From assembly GCA_963840855.1 (NCBI GenBank), contig CAWJBB010000046.1, forward strand, positions 96,001-160,000: DNA of 64,000 nucleotides, written 5' to 3'. Of the stretch, positions 30,772 to 38,923 are shown piece by piece. The position numbers and the translations under genes are program-made. Under the pieces are notes generated by a model that saw only the letters and a list, made by a program, of their open reading frames with translations, searched no databases and had not been told where the DNA came from. Source of the stretch: an uncultured delta proteobacterium. Lineage in GTDB: Bacteria > Desulfobacterota > Binatia > UBA9968. The stretch's first letter is position 1; each line of letters opens with the position of its first letter.

Positions 30772-31098
30772 CACTCAAGGCCGCCAGAGCAGGTGGTCTT
30801 TCCTTGACAACCCCGTAGCAGTTGAGGTAAGCGAGGGCATTATTATAATGCCGACCGATTCTGGTTAGGCAATATCTGTGATCCAGTTTCTTTGAGCCCG
30901 ACCGGCTTCGTGCTAGTCGGGCTTTGTATTTAAGAGGGGATGCCCATGTTTGCCAGAGGCCCTCCGTTTATATAGAGAAAAGATTTTTTATCGTCGGCAT
31001 CTCTAAGAAGAGTCGGTGGGAGTACGATTCATTTACTTCTTTGCGCGAGCGGCTCAGTATGAGGCGCACCCACCATAACGCTTTAAAGGAGGATGCTC

Positions 31099-31980
31099 AT
31101 GGAGACTATAGAAAGTTTGCGTGACCGCTTAGAGGTATTAGAAAATCAGACCCATGCCCTTGCAGACCAGACACGTGCTGCTGAACGACGACTGCATTGT
31201 TGGCGACGGATTGCATATGGCTTGCTGATAGTGGGGCTGGTGAGCTTGCCACTGGCGTCGGGCATCACGGCGCAAGACGAATCGTCCGAGTATAGGGGGA
31301 TGAGGAAACGCCTCGCCGCCCTTGAGTACAAGCTCCAGTATATCAGTGGCGGTCCCAATGAGGTTGTCATCACTGGAGCGAACCTGCGGATCGTGAATGG
31401 CCTCGGCGCCACGCAAACCACCAACGGCTTGGGCAACCTGATCGTGGGCTATAACGAGCCGCGTCGAGTAGGGTTTCCGACCGTGCGCACGGGCTCGCAC
31501 AATGTTGTGGTAGGAGAAGCGCACAACTTCTCCCGCTTCGGAGGGATGGTGGTCGGGTTTCAGAATGAGATTAGCGGCGACTTCTCGTCCGTGAGTGGGG
31601 GGCTGGAGAACACGGCCAGTGGTGACTGGTCGTCGGTTAGCGGGGGACCTCACAACAGCGCCATCGGAACCTATTCGTCTGTCAGCGGAGGGCACGATAA
31701 CACCGCTAGCGGCCCCGGCGCCTCCGTGACTGGGGGGAGGAACAATACCGCCAGTGGCATTGAGGCCGTGGTTAGTGGGGGCCCTTTCAATACGGCCAGT
31801 GGCCACTGGTCGTCGGTTAGCGGGGGGCAGCAGAACACGGCTAGAGGAGAACGGTCCTCCATCAGCGGCGGGGAAGGCAACGAGGCGAGCGGGTTCGTCT
31901 CCTCGGTCAGCGGCGGACTCCAAAGGACCGCTCCCGGGACAAACAACTGGGCGGCTGGCCCCCTCTTCGCCGCGCAGTAA
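31099..31980 (+). CDS. Membrane-anchored protein with 14-aa SSVSGGxxNTASG repeats (beta-solenoid)
   Basis: Coiled coil and TM, GLGNLIVGYNE, about 8 repeats with 42-nt period; AAGGAGG SD. Confidence 0.8.
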   Translation: METIESLRDRLEVLENQTHALADQTRAAERRLHCWRRIAYGLLIVGLVSLPLASGITAQDESSEYRGMRKRLAALEYKLQYISGGPNEVVITGANLRIVNGLGATQTTNGLGNLIVGYNEPRRVGFPTVRTGSHNVVVGEAHNFSRFGGMVVGFQNEISGDFSSVSGGLENTASGDWSSVSGGPHNSAIGTYSSVSGGHDNTASGPGASVTGGRNNTASGIEAVVSGGPFNTASGHWSSVSGGQQNTARGERSSISGGEGNEASGFVSSVSGGLQRTAPGTNNWAAGPLFAAQ

Positions 31981-32224
31981 GGAGTTGGCGCACAAGTGAA
32001 TGGCCACAAGAACTGGGCCGAATATCACGAGGGAGGGGTCGAGCGTCAAGCGGCTCCTCCTTTGCGACTGCAAACAACACGGAGCGTAAGCTTCTTTTCC
32101 CAGTGGCGGGACAAACTGTGTTGACGCACAGCCCGCCCGTTTTTATTTCAGTCTAAGTAAACGGATTCGTTCCTGCCTCACAAAATTTGAGCCCGCCGGT
32201 TCCTAACCTGAATCGGCCTGTTGG

Positions 32225-32570
32225 TATTTCAATGAGGCTGCCGAGCTTTGCCGCGTTAATCCATCACTCCATTACTCCAACTGACATCCTTCATCGCAGT
32301 CCTTCGAGGTGGGTTTTGAAGTCCAGCGGATTTCACCAGGTTTTCTAGTGTCCCTAACTTTGAACGTTGAACCGAACTTTCGCCACTCGAAGTCTTGCTT
32401 CAGGGCGCCGATTCAGGTTCAAGCAACGGGGAAAGTGAAGTCATCATGGTTGGCATGGGCGGCGCGCAGCGGAAAAGTGAACTGCCGGCGCCTTGGGCAT
32501 AACGTAAGGTTCACCCTCGAAGATTTGGAAGCACTAATCGAGCAGTCGAAAACCACCGGCGACAATAAGA
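32225..32570 (+). pseudogene. Interrupted second copy of the excisionase gene
   Basis: YFNEAAELCRV at ~32225, a ~175-bp insert, then VKSSWLAWAARSGKVNCRRLGHNVRF...LIEQS, matching 30481-30771. Confidence 0.7.
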
Positions 32571-32582
32571 GAGAGATAGCGA

Positions 32583-32611
32583 TTGACATTCCACTCTTAA
32601 AATTATACGGT
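32583..32611 (+). promoter_or_regulatory. Sigma70 promoter for xre-int (element 2)
   Basis: TTGACA-N17-TACGGT, 7 nt before ATG 32619. Confidence 0.55.
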
Positions 32612-32618
32612 GAGGATA

Positions 32619-32804
32619 ATGATAGGCAAGCAGCTACGGGATGCAAGGCGCTATCTGAACCTTACACAAGGTGAGCTAGGCCGCCAATTGGGCATCCACT
32701 TAAATACGATTGCGCGCATGGAGCGCGACGAGTTAGCAATAGCGAAAGTCGTCGAGCTTGCCGTCAAATTCCTAACGTCCAAAAAACAAAGGGGGACACG
32801 CTAA
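32619..32804 (+). CDS. XRE-family HTH transcriptional regulator
   Basis: LRDARRYLNLTQGELGRQLGIHLNTIARMER; TAATG overlap with int. Confidence 0.85.
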   Translation: MIGKQLRDARRYLNLTQGELGRQLGIHLNTIARMERDELAIAKVVELAVKFLTSKKQRGTR

Positions 32805-33982
32805 TGGCAATCAATCAAACAGCGGCGGGGAAATGGGTTGTTGACTGGTGGTTTTTCAAGGATGGCAAGCGAAAGCGCAAAGAGAAAACCTTCGGCAAGA
32901 AAAAAGATGCGACGGCGTTTTATGAATCGACGCGGAGCAAGGTTAGAGACAACGAATACACGCCACCGTCGAAGCATACGGTTAAGGAAATGGCGGAATT
33001 GTACCTAGCAGCGACGAAGGCGAAAACCAAAATTCAAACACACGCGCAGTATAAGCGGCATATCGACGGCTACATCGTGCCGGCATTCGGCGAGCGGCGC
33101 ATGACCGAGCTAGGCTTTGAAGAAATAGAAGAGGCGGGGCGCAAATGGGCCAAAGAGAAGAAAATCAATCCGGTATCCGTCAATAAGATTTTCCGCACCC
33201 TGGGCGCCGTCTATAGCTACGCCAAGAAACACGGCGTCAACTACAATCCCATGACGAGAGTGGACCGCCAGCGTGATAACAAAACCCTTGAGGCGATAGA
33301 GGCCGAAGCGATCCGGGGCTTGACGCAGGTTGACGACGACGGGGCCGGCGACGGGCACCTACGCGCCGTGGGGCCGCACGAAGTCTACAGCGCAGAAGAG
33401 GTAAAGAAACTAATCGACGCGAGCGCGCCGGGCCTTGAGCGGGCGCTGCACATGACCGCGGTTATGACCGGCATGAGACACGGTGAGATAAACGGACTGC
33501 AATGGGATAGGGTAGATTTCGAGAAGTCGCGGATTTTTGTTTCACGCAGTTTGACCGAGCTTAAAGGCGGGGCGATCATCGAGCGGCCAAAGAGCCGGGC
33601 GGCATATCGTTATTTGCCCATGACACCCATGCTAGTTTCAGAGTTGAAGCGGTGGAAGTTGCAAAGCCCGGTAAACGAGCTTGACTTGGTTTTCGCCGAT
33701 CCGTTAGGCAGGGCATTGAACCGCAAGGCGAACAATCGGCGCCTGAAGCAGGCGGCCACGCGGGCGAAGGTCAAGGCGTTGTCGATGCACAATCTGAGGC
33801 ACACATACGCGAGTCAGCACTTGATGGCGGGAACGGCGCCAGCCGAGATTTCGCAGCTAATGGGCCATGCCGATGTCGCGATAACTTTGAAGGTTTATTC
33901 ACACTGGACGCAAAGAGACTATGCAGGCTCCGCGGCGGCGCTAGAATCGCGCTACTTCGCAAGCGCAACGGCGGGCGAATGA
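32804..33982 (+). CDS. Tyrosine integrase (intact)
   Basis: TGMRHGE, HNLRHTY, MGH and ITLKVY give the full catalytic set. Confidence 0.95.
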   Translation: MAINQTAAGKWVVDWWFFKDGKRKRKEKTFGKKKDATAFYESTRSKVRDNEYTPPSKHTVKEMAELYLAATKAKTKIQTHAQYKRHIDGYIVPAFGERRMTELGFEEIEEAGRKWAKEKKINPVSVNKIFRTLGAVYSYAKKHGVNYNPMTRVDRQRDNKTLEAIEAEAIRGLTQVDDDGAGDGHLRAVGPHEVYSAEEVKKLIDASAPGLERALHMTAVMTGMRHGEINGLQWDRVDFEKSRIFVSRSLTELKGGAIIERPKSRAAYRYLPMTPMLVSELKRWKLQSPVNELDLVFADPLGRALNRKANNRRLKQAATRAKVKALSMHNLRHTYASQHLMAGTAPAEISQLMGHADVAITLKVYSHWTQRDYAGSAAALESRYFASATAGE

Positions 33983-34205: not shown

Positions 34206-34946
34206 ATGCCGTTATCGGGTCAAGCGTTTGTGAAAGAAATAGAAGGAATGGTGCAGAAAAAGCACTCGAAAGATCATCCGATTATTGGCATGATCGAAAA
34301 CGGCGAGCTGACGCGCGAACAATTAAAAGGTTTCGTCGGACAGTTCTATCTCTTTTTCCCAAAGCCGTTTCCCAAACCCATCGCCGCCATGCTCAGCCGC
34401 TGCCCGGATGATCCCGAGTTGGAAAAGATGTGGATCGAAAACGTCGTCGAAGAGGGAACCGGCGAGATCACGGGCACCGATAGCCATAAAGGGCTTTTCA
34501 TTCGATTCGCCAAAGCTTGCGGATTTTCTCGGGAAGAACTCGATAAGGTTGAGCCTACGCCGGAAGCCCAGGCGTTTCTCGACTGGCGGGAATTGCTCAT
34601 GTACCAGCGCACCTGGCTGGAGCTCTTTGCCTGCCAGGGATTTTGCCTCGAAGGGACGGCGAATCCGCGCATGACCCGCATCGTCAACGGTCTGACCAAG
34701 CACTACGGCTTCGACCGGGAATCGGAAGATATCCGCTACTGGACGCTACATATGGGCGTTGACGAAGAACATATGAAAGTGGGACCGCTGACCGTGGAAC
34801 GTTACGCCACGACGGACTTTCAGCAAAATCAAGTGCGCGCCGCCGTGCAGAAGACGCTGGATCAGTTTTGGCTCGCCTTCGACGGCATCAAGCGCGCGTT
34901 CGTCGACAAAGATCCGCTCTACGCCCGTTGGCGCAACGGAAATTAA
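34206..34946 (+). CDS. Heme-oxygenase-like diiron enzyme (CADD/PqqC/TenA fold)
   Basis: ENVVEE...H, CLEG and YWTLHMGVDEEH metal ligands. Confidence 0.8.
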   Translation: MPLSGQAFVKEIEGMVQKKHSKDHPIIGMIENGELTREQLKGFVGQFYLFFPKPFPKPIAAMLSRCPDDPELEKMWIENVVEEGTGEITGTDSHKGLFIRFAKACGFSREELDKVEPTPEAQAFLDWRELLMYQRTWLELFACQGFCLEGTANPRMTRIVNGLTKHYGFDRESEDIRYWTLHMGVDEEHMKVGPLTVERYATTDFQQNQVRAAVQKTLDQFWLAFDGIKRAFVDKDPLYARWRNGN

Positions 34947-34959
34947 GGAGGTTGATTCC

Positions 34960-35616
34960 ATGGAACTGGTCGATCTCTCGCGTGTAATTTATGACAGCAT
35001 GCCGAAGATTCCCATTTTGCCCGACGTGCACGTGCGAAAGTTTTTCGACTTGGACAAGGGACATCCACTCAACGTCACCGAACTGTCGCTGCCTTGTCAC
35101 GCCGGCACCCACGTGGACGCGCCGATTCATATCGTCCCAAACGGCAAGTCGATTGAAGAGTTGCCGCTGGACGCTTTCGTCGGCAACGGCGCGACGATCT
35201 CCGTAAATAAGAGCGGCGGCGAGGAAATCACCGCAGCCGACTTGGAAAACTCCGGCGTGCCCGTGAATAAGGGTGATATTTTGATGTTGCACACGGGTTG
35301 GGACGCGAAATTCGAAACTGCGGATTACAACATGCATCCCTATTTTTCGGTGGACGCCGCGGAGTGGATGGTCAAGAAGGGGATCAAGATGGTCTGCATC
35401 GACTGTATCACGGTGGATTTGCCGACACCGCTTCGTCCCAAAGGCTTTGCATTTCCGGTTCACAAGACGCTCCTCGGCAACGAAGTGCTAATCGCCGAGA
35501 ACCTGGCGAACATCGGCAGCATCGTTGGCAAGAAGACCCGGATCATGGCGTTGCCGCTGCGCGTTAAGGGCAGCGATGCGGGACACGCGAGAATCGTCGC
35601 GGAGGTTTTGAACTAA
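34960..35616 (+). CDS. Cyclase family protein (kynurenine formamidase-like)
   Basis: HAGTHVDAPIH, LHTGW, VH..LL....IAENL. Confidence 0.9.
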   Translation: MELVDLSRVIYDSMPKIPILPDVHVRKFFDLDKGHPLNVTELSLPCHAGTHVDAPIHIVPNGKSIEELPLDAFVGNGATISVNKSGGEEITAADLENSGVPVNKGDILMLHTGWDAKFETADYNMHPYFSVDAAEWMVKKGIKMVCIDCITVDLPTPLRPKGFAFPVHKTLLGNEVLIAENLANIGSIVGKKTRIMALPLRVKGSDAGHARIVAEVLN

Positions 35617-35621
35617 ACGTC

Positions 35622-36590
35622 ATGGCAGCCACGAAACCGATCAAAGGAATCATCGGCGCCTGTCTGACGCCGTTCGACGACAACGACAGGGTAGATTACA
35701 AGGCGTTGGAAAAAGAAATCGAGTTTCTCGTTCCGGATTGCGACGCCGTAACCATTGCGGCCGTCGAAGCCGCCGAGTACACGATGCTGTCGCGCGACGA
35801 GCGCAAAGAAGTCTTGCGCGTCGCCACGGAAATGGTAAATCACCGCGTCCCCGTCATCCTCGGTTGTTCGAGCCCGTCGCCAAAAGAGGTCATAGAATTG
35901 GCCGAATACTCCGCGAAAGTCGGCGGCGATTTTGTCCAGGTCCTCATGCCGCTTCGTCCCTGGGGCGGCCAGCCGACCATCGCAGAATTAATGGAGTTCT
36001 ATACTCAGGTGGCGACCGCGAGTCCGCTGCCGGTGACTTGCTATCACAACCCAGGTCCAGGAGCCGATCCACCTCAAGACGCATTCGTCAAAATCAGCGA
36101 AGTCGACAATATCCGCTATTTCAAGGAAAGCTCGCGAGATATTACAAAAATATCTAGACTCATTGAACAAATAGATCTCGCAGGGCGTGGACATTACTTC
36201 ACCACTATGCAGCCGCTGTTGATTACTTTGATGCTCGGGGGATCGGGCGCCACCATGCCGCCGCCGGGCACCAGGATCGGCGCGCAAGTGGTCAGGGCGT
36301 TCAGAGCCGGCGACCTGGATCGAGCGCGTTTCTGGGCGCGTTGTTTCGCGCTCTTCCCTGGCAAGTGGGCCGCTTACGGCCTGCCGCCGGTGATGAAATC
36401 GGCAATGAAGCACTTCGGTGTCGATATCGGCAATCCGGCGCGCCCCTACGCGCCGGTGAGCCCGCGGGACCACGCGCAAATCGGCCAGTTTCTTCAACAG
36501 GTCGGTTTGATTGGGGAAGCCGGGCCGACACCGCAATCATTGCTTGACGCCGGCGAAAAGCTGCGCCAGGAAGACACTTTTCTGAGATAG
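35622..36590 (+). CDS. Dihydrodipicolinate synthase family aldolase/lyase
   Basis: LTPFD...VD, YHNP, Schiff-base Lys in YFKESS. Confidence 0.85.
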   Translation: MAATKPIKGIIGACLTPFDDNDRVDYKALEKEIEFLVPDCDAVTIAAVEAAEYTMLSRDERKEVLRVATEMVNHRVPVILGCSSPSPKEVIELAEYSAKVGGDFVQVLMPLRPWGGQPTIAELMEFYTQVATASPLPVTCYHNPGPGADPPQDAFVKISEVDNIRYFKESSRDITKISRLIEQIDLAGRGHYFTTMQPLLITLMLGGSGATMPPPGTRIGAQVVRAFRAGDLDRARFWARCFALFPGKWAAYGLPPVMKSAMKHFGVDIGNPARPYAPVSPRDHAQIGQFLQQVGLIGEAGPTPQSLLDAGEKLRQEDTFLR

Positions 36591-36859
36591 CTAACGGGTA
36601 TAATTCTGAGTGCGGTGATAGGCCGGAAATCAACGCTTCGGCGAAGTCTTATATGGAATTTTTAAAGCACCTTTCAGATGAATTTCTCATCTGGTTTCTT
36701 AAATCTACTTCCGGCTTCGGGCGAGAGCTGACGAGGGTGGGCCGGCACGAACAGAACTTGTGGCGCGAGCGCCGGCTGCGCGATCTCAAAGGGTTATCGA
36801 TCATGTCAAAACAGCGCTACTCAAAAAAAACGGACCCGGTGTAAACAGGGCAACCGGCA

Positions 36860-38017
36860 ATGTTCAGACTCAACGGGCGAAAACAGATCGTCATTCTTGG
36901 CGGTGGCAGCGGTGGGGTGGTCGCCGCGACCCATCTGGGGCGCAGCCTAGGCGATCGCCATGACGTCATCCTGATCGATAAGCGACCGGATCACCTGTTC
37001 ATGCCGGCTTTTCTTTTCGTCATGGTCGGCGAGCGCCAGTCCAATGACGTGAGTAGAAGCTTGAAACTCTTGGAGCGACGGAACGTTAAATTCATTCAGT
37101 CCGAGGTTTTGGGAATTGATCCTTCCAGGCAAGAAATTCATGTTCAAAAAGAATCCATTAACTACGATTATCTGATCGTTTCTCTCGGTTTACAGACCAG
37201 GCCGGACCTCGTGCCAGGTTTTGCTGAGGCGTCGGTGCATCCTTGGGAGCTGGATGGCGCCTTGGAATTGCGCGACAAAATAACGGCTTTTAGAAGCGGC
37301 CGTGTAGTGGTCGGCGTTCCGCTCGGTCCGTATCGTTGCCCGCCCGCGCCCTATGAAGCACAGTGGATGTTGGACGATTATTTCAGGCGCAAAGGTATTC
37401 GCGAACGCGTGCAGATGGATTATTTCACCCGCGACCCTGAGCCGGCCGGAGAGCAGCGCACGCCTGCGGTCTGGATGGACGCTGAAAGCCGGCGGCGCAA
37501 TATCAAGCAGCACTATGAATTCGTCGTGCGTTCGATTGATGCCGAAGCCAAAACGGTGTCAGGGCTTTACGGCTATAAGATTCCATACGATCTGCTCGTT
37601 ATGGTGCCGCCGCACCGGCCCGCTCAGGTGCTTTCGGATTGCGGTCTGGCCGACACTGAGAACGGTATCCGCGTTGACTATGAAACGCTGAAAACCAAGT
37701 GGGATAATGTATACGCCATCGGTGACTGCGCCGATTTGCCGGCGTCTAAATCCGGTGGTGTGGCGCACCAGGAGGCCGACGTCGTCGCGCATAATCTCAC
37801 GGCTGAAATCACTGGAAAGGGCCGGCCCGTGGATCTCTGGCTCCACACCATATGACTGCTGGCGTTCGGCGCGGGCCGCGCCGCCGCAAATCGCACGACT
37901 TATCCAGGTGGCTGGCCGCCATTCGGCGCTACCGAAGCTCGAACTTGGGGGCCTTCGCGTCTGATTTACTGGGCTAAGGTAGGGTTTGAGAAGTGGTGGC
38001 TCTGGCGCTATTTCTAA
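36860..38017 (+). CDS. Sulfide:quinone oxidoreductase/FCSD-family flavoprotein, predicted selenocysteine at TGA 37853-37855
   Basis: ILGGGSGG, YRCPPAPYE, AIGD. The frame continues past TGA for 53 aa to the family-typical PSRLIYWAKVGFEKWWLWRYF* end. Confidence 0.8.
37857..37888 (+). promoter_or_regulatory. Bacterial SECIS-like hairpin
   Basis: UGC-U-GGC-GUUC-GGCGCG-[GGC]-CGCGCC-GCC-GCA; upper stem starts 12 nt after UGA and the loop begins with G. Confidence 0.65.
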
Positions 38018-38023
38018 CTTAGT

Positions 38024-38066
38024 TGTTCCAATCGTTCAAAACGTTCAAGTAGTTCCAATCGTTTGA
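38024..38066. repeat. Intergenic 9-mer repeat (GTTC(C/A)AxN)
   Basis: gttccaatc gttcaaaac gttcaagta gttccaatc; related arrays at 59688 and 60280-60359. Confidence 0.6.
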
Positions 38067-38198
38067 AGAATCGAATCTGTGCGTCGAAAAATGATGAGCA
38101 CTTCGGCAGTTCGCTTCTTTTTGATGCTTTGAATAGCTGAGGAGAGGAGGCTGAGGATAGGAGCGGAAGATTGATTGGCAAATTGAAGCTTGCTCGAT

Positions 38199-38226
38199 AG
38201 TTGACATAATATATCTTATCAGACGT
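38199..38226 (-). other. dif site (XerC/XerD)
   Basis: Minus strand ACGTCTGATAA-GATATA-TTATGTCAACT, 11-6-11 layout (cf. E. coli GGTGCGCATAA-TGTATA-TTATGTTAAAT); intergenic between convergent genes. Confidence 0.8.
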
Positions 38227-38238
38227 TATAGTCTAACC

Positions 38239-38923
38239 CTATTTTACGCTGGGTTGAGCGCCGGCTTTTGCCTCTAGATCTGCAAGCTTCACGGTTACGG
38301 CGGCTTCAGGATCATCCTTTAAATAGTCGCGATAACTCGCGATGGCTGATTGGATATCACCCATCTGTTCAGCGCAGCGCGCCTTCCCGAGGCGCGCCTC
38401 CTGTTGCAAGGCATTTTTGATCTTCTCCGCTTCGCCGTAGCGCGCAGTTGCTTGCTTGCATAGGTTTTGTTGTTCTTCGACGGCGGCAACCGTTATCAGA
38501 GCTATCTGGCGAAAAAGCGTATCCGGGCCGGTTGCCGCTAAGAAACGCTGCGCCGGCGCGGCCGCTTTAGCGGTTTCACCGAGACTGAGATAGCTATTCG
38601 CTTCATAGAGATATCCCAACACCGCGTAACGCGACCACCGGTAGCCCTGGACCTTTTGAAACTCCGCGATGGCTTCGCGGATATTTTTGCGCCTGATAAA
38701 GGGATAACGCGCCCCCGAACTCCCTGCTCGCCGCGGCGTTGTGGCGCGCCTTGAAAAGCTGCCACCCAGAGACAACCAAGAGAAGGACTCCCAGGGCGGC
38801 CAGTCCGCCAAGTACCTTCACGCGGTGTTGGGTGAAGAGGTCGAGAGCTTTTTCAGTCGTTACTTGGAACCAGTCGGGCCGACGTAGCTCCTTGCGGGTG
38901 ATTCTCTTACTCGACGTGGCCAT
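38239..38923 (-). CDS. YfgM-like TM/TPR protein (1-nt frameshift ~38680)
   Basis: RITRKELRRPDWF N-terminus, a TM helix, then TPR helices in the adjacent frame. Confidence 0.75.

Follow-up and report, generated by a model that had tools for sequence, protein, structure and literature searches.

Does the in-frame TGA at positions 37853-37855 of the window end a gene, as automatic gene calling has it, or is it a codon for selenocysteine (Sec)? The window is the whole stretch of 64,000 nucleotides of Binatia DNA analysed here, and it belongs to a metagenome-assembled genome whose 93 contigs total 7.1 Mb (completeness 94%, contamination 8%). The gene in question occupies 36860..38017 of the forward strand and encodes a flavoprotein of the family that comprises the sulfide:quinone oxidoreductases (SQRs) and the flavocytochrome-c sulfide dehydrogenase (FCSD) flavoproteins. 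Comparison with related sequences makes it highly probable that the UGA at 37853-55 is a selenocysteine codon. As a whole, the locus is likely, with good confidence, to encode a 385-residue membrane-associated flavoprotein of the SQR/FCSD family in which the second active-site cysteine has been replaced by Sec.

In the open reading frame (ORF) listing of the window, the uninterrupted frame extends over 36860..37855 and closes at the TGA, giving 331 amino acids. When this TGA is translated as U, the same frame goes on for 53 codons, reading ...LHTI-U-LLAFGAGRAAANRTTYPGGWPPFGATEARTWGPSRLIYWAKVGFEKWWLWRYF, and meets no further stop before the TAA at 38015-38017. The gene is therefore complete in this translation, with one in-frame UGA (residue 332, in the motif H-T-I-U), and its assignment to the SQR/FCSD family comes from the frame, Pfam and NCBIfam matches, an AlphaFold2 (AF2) model and structure matches.

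The TGA is a constant feature of the related sequences. Among the 120 best matches in a search of 5.8 billion proteins, 119 span just 84-86% of the query, at 76 to 100% identity, and have therefore been cut at the UGA by gene callers. One match among these 120, P0023, has the full 385 amino acids (70% identity) and carries Cys at column 332. At the DNA level, 75 related loci were gathered from genomes and 80 from metagenomes. The column holds TGA in 73/73 genome loci covering the position (the remaining two match residues 4-60 or 357-385 alone) and in all 78 metagenome loci that reach it, that is, in 151 of 151 loci taken together. The genome loci carry the labels Binatia, 'delta proteobacterium', Syntrophobacter(aceae), Acidobacteriota, Chloroflexota, Verrucomicrobiota and Eisenbacteria, and, at 44% identity, Rubrobacteraceae, it being possible that some of these bin labels are imperfect; the nearest relative of the window gene is 97% identical. 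Furthermore, the frame beyond the TGA behaves as coding sequence: over codons 342-354, the amino acid is the same in at least 90% of the sequences, while the third positions vary with 0.95-1.89 bits.

P0023 is the sole full-length Cys form found within the otherwise all-Sec branch. Its contig was not recovered in the metagenome scan, where the best match had 76% identity, and its codon could not be read there.

The position occupied by the UGA is that of a catalytic cysteine. Of 60 remote full-length homologues (28-37% identity, drawn from the 150 matches listed by an exhaustive HMMER search), 55 have Cys at column 332, and most of the five others are devoid of the first redox Cys as well. In the HMMER alignment to human SQOR, U332 is opposite the Cys of 'YTSC' and C160 is opposite the Cys of 'VKCAGAP', two residues that we take to be Cys379 and Cys201. 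The first redox cysteine of the window protein, Cys160, is encoded by the TGC codon at 37337..37339 and belongs to the motif CPPAPYE. Both of the paired redox positions of the SQR/FCSD family are thus filled, by C160 and by UGA/Sec332, in columns that are Cys in 56/62 and 57/62 aligned rows, respectively. An in-frame UGA opposite Cys, together with UGA-bearing homologues in other organisms, is the pattern by which bacterial selenoproteins are recognised.

These results agree with the first-pass annotation of this DNA, which had noticed that the listed ORF stops at the TGA while its frame continues to give 385 amino acids. It had found the Cys of CPxAPYE, had placed the UGA at the second catalytic Cys position, and had anticipated Cys opposite the UGA in homologues and a conserved UGA in relatives. 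It had also named TGC or TGT in reads as what would overturn its proposal; contigs from three other soil metagenome runs span the codon and list no difference there (12 differences not displayed).

The features of the translated protein fit this assignment. Pfam recognises Pyr_redox_2 (4.8e-21) and FCSD_central (6.6e-09). The N-terminal dinucleotide (FAD) binding motif, ILGGGSGG (residues 12-19, 36893..36916, forward strand), lies in a region, residues 9-44, that is matched by Pyr_redox_2 and NAD_binding_8, and its glycines G14, G16 and G19 are invariant or almost so in the homologue alignment. The AF2 model, built from the 62-row alignment, reaches a mean predicted local distance difference test score (pLDDT) of 94.7 and a predicted template modelling score (pTM) of 0.93. 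Its top structure matches are the human, Aquifex and Acidithiobacillus SQRs (TMq 0.83-0.87), followed by FCSD; by sequence, the best solved relatives are human SQOR (1e-33), then archaeal and bacterial SQRs and FCSD flavoproteins. The two dinucleotide-binding domains and the N-terminal GxGxxG that characterise the SQR/FCSD fold are both present. In the model, residue 332 sits in strand 328-337, the opening strand of the C-terminal domain. The protein is closed by a helix (residues 367-384, ...SRLIYWAKVGFEKWWLWRY, encoded by 37958..38011) that is rich in Trp, Phe, Lys and Arg, is modelled with high pLDDT, is conserved in relatives and is made only upon read-through of the UGA. By likeness to SQR structures, this helix is likely amphipathic and membrane-binding.

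The window protein has no twin-arginine (TAT) signal. The same genome also encodes a Cys-type paralogue, a 414-aa FCSD-like flavoprotein (G000:C76:12872-14116; L097 1390-2634, minus strand), which carries the twin-arginine signal RRKFLK, the sequence YRCPPGPYE and Cys at the second catalytic column (GNTCYS).

A hairpin resembling a selenocysteine insertion sequence (SECIS) lies within the coding sequence at 37867..37883. Its 5' arm (37867-37872, CGGCGC) and its 3' arm (37878-37883, GCGCCG) form 6 bp around an apical loop of 5 nt (37873-37877, GGGCC); the 5' arm begins 11 nt past the UGA (12 nt when its first C-G pair is not counted), with 17 nt separating UGA and loop. This is the GC hairpin with a G-initiated loop that the first-pass annotation had described 12 nt past the UGA. 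In an alignment of the window with 73 loci (74 distinct rows), the alifold consensus, at -10.98 kcal/mol, is a helix of 6 bp closed by the 5-nt loop N-G-G-N-C. Over the six pairs, the alignment holds 12 one-sided changes, each of them to G-U, and three broken cells, one in L084 and two in the divergent L090, where inspection shows that a hairpin displaced by two bases is possible. The five core pairs are intact in 99.2% of cells, versus 20-73% for slid partners. An Rfam scan of 36400-38300 at E<=1 returned zero matches.

The decisive evidence for the hairpin is the constraint on synonymous sites. It was measured on 122 distinct ungapped full-length sequences (124 of 152 had a single stop and an ungapped identity of at least 55%, as the filters required), in which 105 fourfold-degenerate codons are conserved. 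Among these 105, third-position entropy is lowest at codons 340 (0.07 bits), 337 (0.12 bits) and 341 (0.25 bits), and these three sites are exactly the third codon positions of the stem; the median across the gene is 1.63 bits and the two third positions of the loop have 1.69 and 1.80 bits. By simple arithmetic, the chance of three named sites taking ranks 1-3 of 105 is about 1 in 187,000. Furthermore, the third positions of codons 337, 340 and 341 show C or T only, so that pairing with G is kept.

The genome holds much of the machinery that Sec decoding calls on. A selA-selB-selD cluster lies on contig C1, selA scoring 616 bits. The selD gene is whole and has an in-frame TGA of its own, at '...TVKAAG-U-AAKLGPADL', which is presumably the known Sec/Cys site of SelD. 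The tRNA for selenocysteine (tRNA-Sec) is present in all five well-assembled relatives that carry a UGA orthologue (66-77 bits, cut-off 47), and four of these tRNAs are nearly identical. The expectation that the genome would hold selA, selB, selC and selD is thus borne out for selA, selB and a Sec-type selD, with two reservations discussed below, a frameshifted selB and a selC that was not found.

A gene resembling formate dehydrogenase alpha (G000:C40:300544-303526) has one in-frame TGA in its N-terminal third and is a further candidate selenoprotein of this genome.

These features can be assembled into a mechanism. SelB, together with Sec-tRNA(Sec), would recode the UGA at 37853-55 under the direction of the hairpin at 37867-37883 within the coding sequence. 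In the resulting protein, Sec332 and Cys160 may form a redox-active bridge at the flavin, of the (poly)sulfide or selenenylsulfide kind. Substrate sulfur would be oxidised on this Sec332/Cys160 pair, and electrons would pass, as in known SQRs, to FAD and then to a quinone whose site lies beside Ile331, Leu333 and the C-terminal helix. As Sec is more nucleophilic and a better leaving group, its presence might accelerate the sulfur-transfer steps or reduce over-oxidation. The balance tips slightly towards a true sulfide:quinone reductase. Where the first-pass annotation had spoken of a Sec enzyme of the SQR family, the family and the Sec reading stand, and the name 'sulfide:quinone oxidoreductase' is still deduced from family and fold.

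The gene lies at the end of a co-oriented set. Upstream on the forward strand are a Haem_oxygenas_2/TenA/CADD/PqqC-like gene (34206-34946, 246 aa, from profile matches), a cyclase/arylformamidase-like gene (34960-35616, 218 aa, likewise) and a gene of the DHDPS family (class I aldolase-like, 35622..36590, 322 aa, PF00701 at 7.4e-31); the genes of 34206-36590 are tightly spaced. Between the DHDPS-family gene and the Sec gene, a small ORF (36653..36844, 63 aa, forward strand) fills what appeared as a 270-nt 'gap'. It reads ...SDKLIIWFLR.TSGFGKELT..G..EQ.LWREQRLRNLKGL..., is conserved at the amino-acid level and has no Pfam or NCBIfam match; in L068, L072 and L092, it reaches further upstream into a hydrophobic stretch. 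Among the loci with enough flank, the DHDPS-family gene is upstream on the same strand in 57/58 genome and 45/45 metagenome loci, and the small ORF in 59/63 and 66/68. The cyclase/arylformamidase-like gene is found in 45 of 53 genome loci and the Haem_oxygenas_2/CADD/PqqC-like gene in 41 of 49. The pair formed by the DHDPS-family gene and the Sec gene is retained in Acidobacteriota and Chloroflexota loci whose neighbours are otherwise different. Searched against NCBIfam, the neighbouring genes reach no equivalog, and the pathway of the gene set is therefore unnamed.

Further upstream, the region 31093-33982 (forward strand) contains a tyrosine recombinase gene (Phage_integrase, 392 aa, 32804-33982) and a gene for a beta-roll 'LbR_Ice_bind' repeat protein (31093-31980). 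Directly past the stop codon of the Sec gene, 38021-38065 holds a dispersed repeat of about 40 nt, with GTTCCAATCGTT present twice. This repeat has 29 more full or partial matches over the same genome, and in contigs of other soil metagenomes it reaches a depth of 66-133 with unrelated flanks on either side; it may be a REP-like (repetitive extragenic palindromic) intergenic element.

Several observations weigh against the proposed reading. Sec332 is a prediction from sequence, and RNA run X15 covers 37300-37726 and 37962-38019, leaving the UGA itself uncovered. Among the 74 rows, no hairpin pair has changes on both sides, so that covariation is not demonstrated; the shuffle control of pair conservation is uninformative, 500/500 shuffles attaining the observed value; and the fold energy is no better than that of shuffles (z +1.04 for 68 nt, z -0.19 for 40 nt). 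Because the energy does not beat GC-rich shuffles, the support for the hairpin comes from conservation. The energy result would suit a TGA that is a true stop, whether the gene has suffered a nonsense mutation, is a pseudogene or encodes a real 331-aa protein, with the downstream frame a left-over or due to chance, and gene callers and public records indeed show 331-aa proteins. However, the TGA stands at the exact column throughout the 151 loci and in many lineages, the 53 downstream codons are open and conserved in their amino acids while synonymous sites vary, and the truncated product would be devoid of the catalytic residue and of the C-terminal domain that remote homologues retain; this reading is close to refuted and can hardly be believed. 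It is very improbable that the UGA is decoded as Trp, Cys or Gly, whether through near-cognate read-through or under another genetic code, or that it is a sequencing error for TGC or TGT. The base 3' of the UGA is C in 72/74 sequences, and a UGA followed by C is a leaky stop context, but homologues have Cys rather than Trp or Gly at the column, the carriers come from several standard-code phyla and have tRNA-Sec, and the constraint on the hairpin points to recoding of the SelB type. As for a sequencing error, no sequencing run contains more than 0.43 of the window's words for a check on reads; such an error cannot recur in 151 independent assemblies, and the contigs of three other studies list no difference at the codon. 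The state of the decoding genes in this very genome raises the possibility that the Sec gene is kept by descent while its decoding is broken, yielding an inactive 331-residue product. Compared with three relatives (95%, 87% and 78% identical), selB has one extra C (G000:C1:39950-40020, L003) that splits it into two frames; this may be an indel of the assembly or a genuine frameshift. The tRNA-Sec of this genome was not found, although the near-identical copies of four relatives would make its detection easy. The Rfam model gives at best 43 bits against the cut-off of 47 (150 of 901 candidates scored), ARAGORN reports none by default and, at lowered thresholds, only coding-like false positives, a motif scan yields 8 matches of which none is tRNA-like, and blastn with the tRNA-Sec of relatives finds matches of at most 16 nt. 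Yet the bin, 94% complete, holds only 39 tRNA genes and several standard ones are missing, so that tRNA-Sec may simply be missing from the bin. Other genes are in pieces in this assembly, which makes an assembly indel in selB plausible; a gene resembling formate dehydrogenase on contig C89 is also in two pieces. The Sec gene and selD are otherwise intact, selA is whole, and the Sec gene has a very close relative. A broken decoding system is therefore judged improbable, and recoding of the UGA as Sec remains the preferred reading.

If Sec is accepted, the substrate is the next matter. No sulfur-metabolism gene lies near the gene, where the constant neighbours are the DHDPS-family gene, the small ORF, the cyclase and the CADD/PqqC-like gene; neighbourhood annotation showed none of the genes for rhodanese, TusA/DsrE, persulfide dioxygenase or sulfite exporter. 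By contrast, a studied type III SQR is reported to belong to an operon with TusA- and DsrE2-like genes. The best family match, NCBIfam NF049943, scores 262.1 bits for the protein and 255.7 for the DNA, and its cut-off of 525 bits is not reached. The enzyme could be the redox part of an uncharacterised gene module that acts on another thiol, persulfide or organic substrate, a possibility that gains from the constancy of the DHDPS-family gene and of the small ORF and from the survival of the DHDPS-Sec pair through changes of neighbours in Acidobacteriota and Chloroflexota. However, the enzyme is SQR-like in its two catalytic positions, its fold and its C-terminal helix, its best family match is a model of type III SQRs, solitary SQR genes are common, and a neighbourhood shared by mostly related genomes may be inherited synteny. 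Another substrate is considered possible but unlikely. A broader and more speculative proposal, which we hold with little confidence, is that this almost wholly Sec-type branch acquired Sec at the catalytic Cys independently of the catalogued NF049943 branch and supplies the redox partner of a fixed module. The module would comprise a DHDPS-family enzyme, a protein of about 60 amino acids and the Sec flavoprotein, in most cases with a cyclase-like hydrolase and a CADD/PqqC-like di-iron enzyme ahead of them, and it might carry out a selenium-dependent transformation in soil Binatia, Acidobacteriota and others, the flavoprotein then being no stand-alone sulfide detoxifier.

The correct reading of this codon has consequences beyond the window. 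In the public records of well over a hundred assemblies from soil and groundwater, the annotated protein ends at residue 331. Cut there, it loses a catalytic residue and its probable membrane-binding tail, so that the enzyme is overlooked or entered as defective in metabolic reconstructions of Binatia, Acidobacteriota and their neighbours; records of the branch bear NCBI names such as 'FAD/NAD(P)-binding oxidoreductase'. With the UGA read as Sec, the Sec-type SQR, a recent prediction, would gain a large separate branch outside the reach of the NCBI model. The locus also offers a very clean natural example of a SECIS in a coding region, which the constraint on synonymous sites alone brings to light. 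The constant gene module is flagged as the part that could prove new; the understanding of Sec decoding itself is unchanged.

The hairpin can be compared with known bacterial SECIS (bSECIS) elements. The published rules ask for a loop of 3-9 nt, G in the first two loop positions, a stem of 4-16 bp, a distance to the UGA of 16-37 nt, a minimum free energy of at most -7.5 kcal/mol and the loop pattern N1-G-[G|U]-N-N2 (PMC13188914). Here, the loop has 5 nt, the stem 6 bp and the spacing 17 nt, the energy is below -7.5 kcal/mol, loop positions 2 and 3 are invariant G, and the stem-loop lies within the coding sequence just past the UGA. The first-pass annotation, which had related this hairpin to bacterial SECIS elements, is thus supported both by the published constraints and by the constraint on synonymous sites. 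The hairpin differs from these elements in that its helix is short, purely GC and without compensatory changes; its binding by SelB is a prediction.

The solved Cys-type SQRs, from human (SQOR, 6oi5), Aquifex aeolicus (3hyv) and Acidithiobacillus ferrooxidans (3t31), share with the window protein the two-Rossmann fold and the C-terminal domain (the TMq range given above), two filled Cys columns, the terminal helix and apolar flanks around the second catalytic residue, here Ile331 and Leu333. PDB titles of the Acidithiobacillus ferrooxidans SQR name the variants C160A and Cys356Ala. The conserved C-terminal Cys of SQRs is located in the first strand of the C-terminal domain, with apolar quinone-site residues beside it (PMC9666304). 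One or more C-terminal amphipathic helices for monotopic membrane binding set SQRs apart from the soluble FCSD. The window protein differs from the solved enzymes in having Sec rather than Cys at the second position and in an identity of 20-25%, and its activity is predicted.

The closest catalogued relative is NF049943, "type III SQR, selenoprotein subtype", a Sec-type SQR predicted by deep-Sep in 2025 (PMC12013277); Zhang et al. 2026 give the Sec form of type III SQR the motif HxxU (PMC13188914). The query of the first-pass annotation, whether such a family is already catalogued, can thus be answered: the HxxU Sec type III SQR has been catalogued since 2025 (NF049943; PMC12013277, PMC13188914), for another branch. 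The Sec-type SQR with HxxU is a kind known by prediction since 2025, with no characterised member in the literature consulted. Literature searches on selenocysteine SQRs and Binatota gave, apart from the deep-Sep paper and the 2026 review, no account of the window branch; Deng et al. 2026 (Cell Rep), which that review cites for selenoproteins of groundwater metagenome-assembled genomes, may bear on it.

The two branches have in common the superfamily, the fold, HxxU (H-T-I-U in the window), Sec at the second catalytic Cys, a single Sec and a SECIS directly downstream, and in the published Desulfosediminicola sequence, compared by eye, U has a matching local context. NF049943 is the best NCBIfam match of the window protein (residues 8-377 on profile positions 1-381 of 406), and the label 'type III' for the window protein is inferred solely from the name of this model. 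The two branches differ in the sequence after Sec (LLAFGAGRAAANRT) and in length (385 aa in the window versus about 407-420), and the window branch has its own constant gene neighbourhood and public records that end at 331 aa. Four proteins of the NF049943 clade, all Cys-type (P0149, P0171, P0191 and P0192), score 534-627 bits with the model, and the nearest remote relatives of the window protein 210-255. In a quick unrooted tree with SH-aLRT as the only support measure, the window clade forms a long branch of its own, outside a clade of 99% support in which the NF049943 group is found among many Cys-type proteins. Judged by sequence, the window gene belongs to a branch separate from the catalogued one. 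Since the window clade lies outside a clade in which the NF049943 group is mixed with Cys-type proteins, separate replacements of Cys by Sec in the two branches are plausible. The window branch is large and almost wholly of the Sec type, with UGA in 151/151 DNA loci and one Cys protein (P0023), and it lies beyond the reach of the NCBI model.

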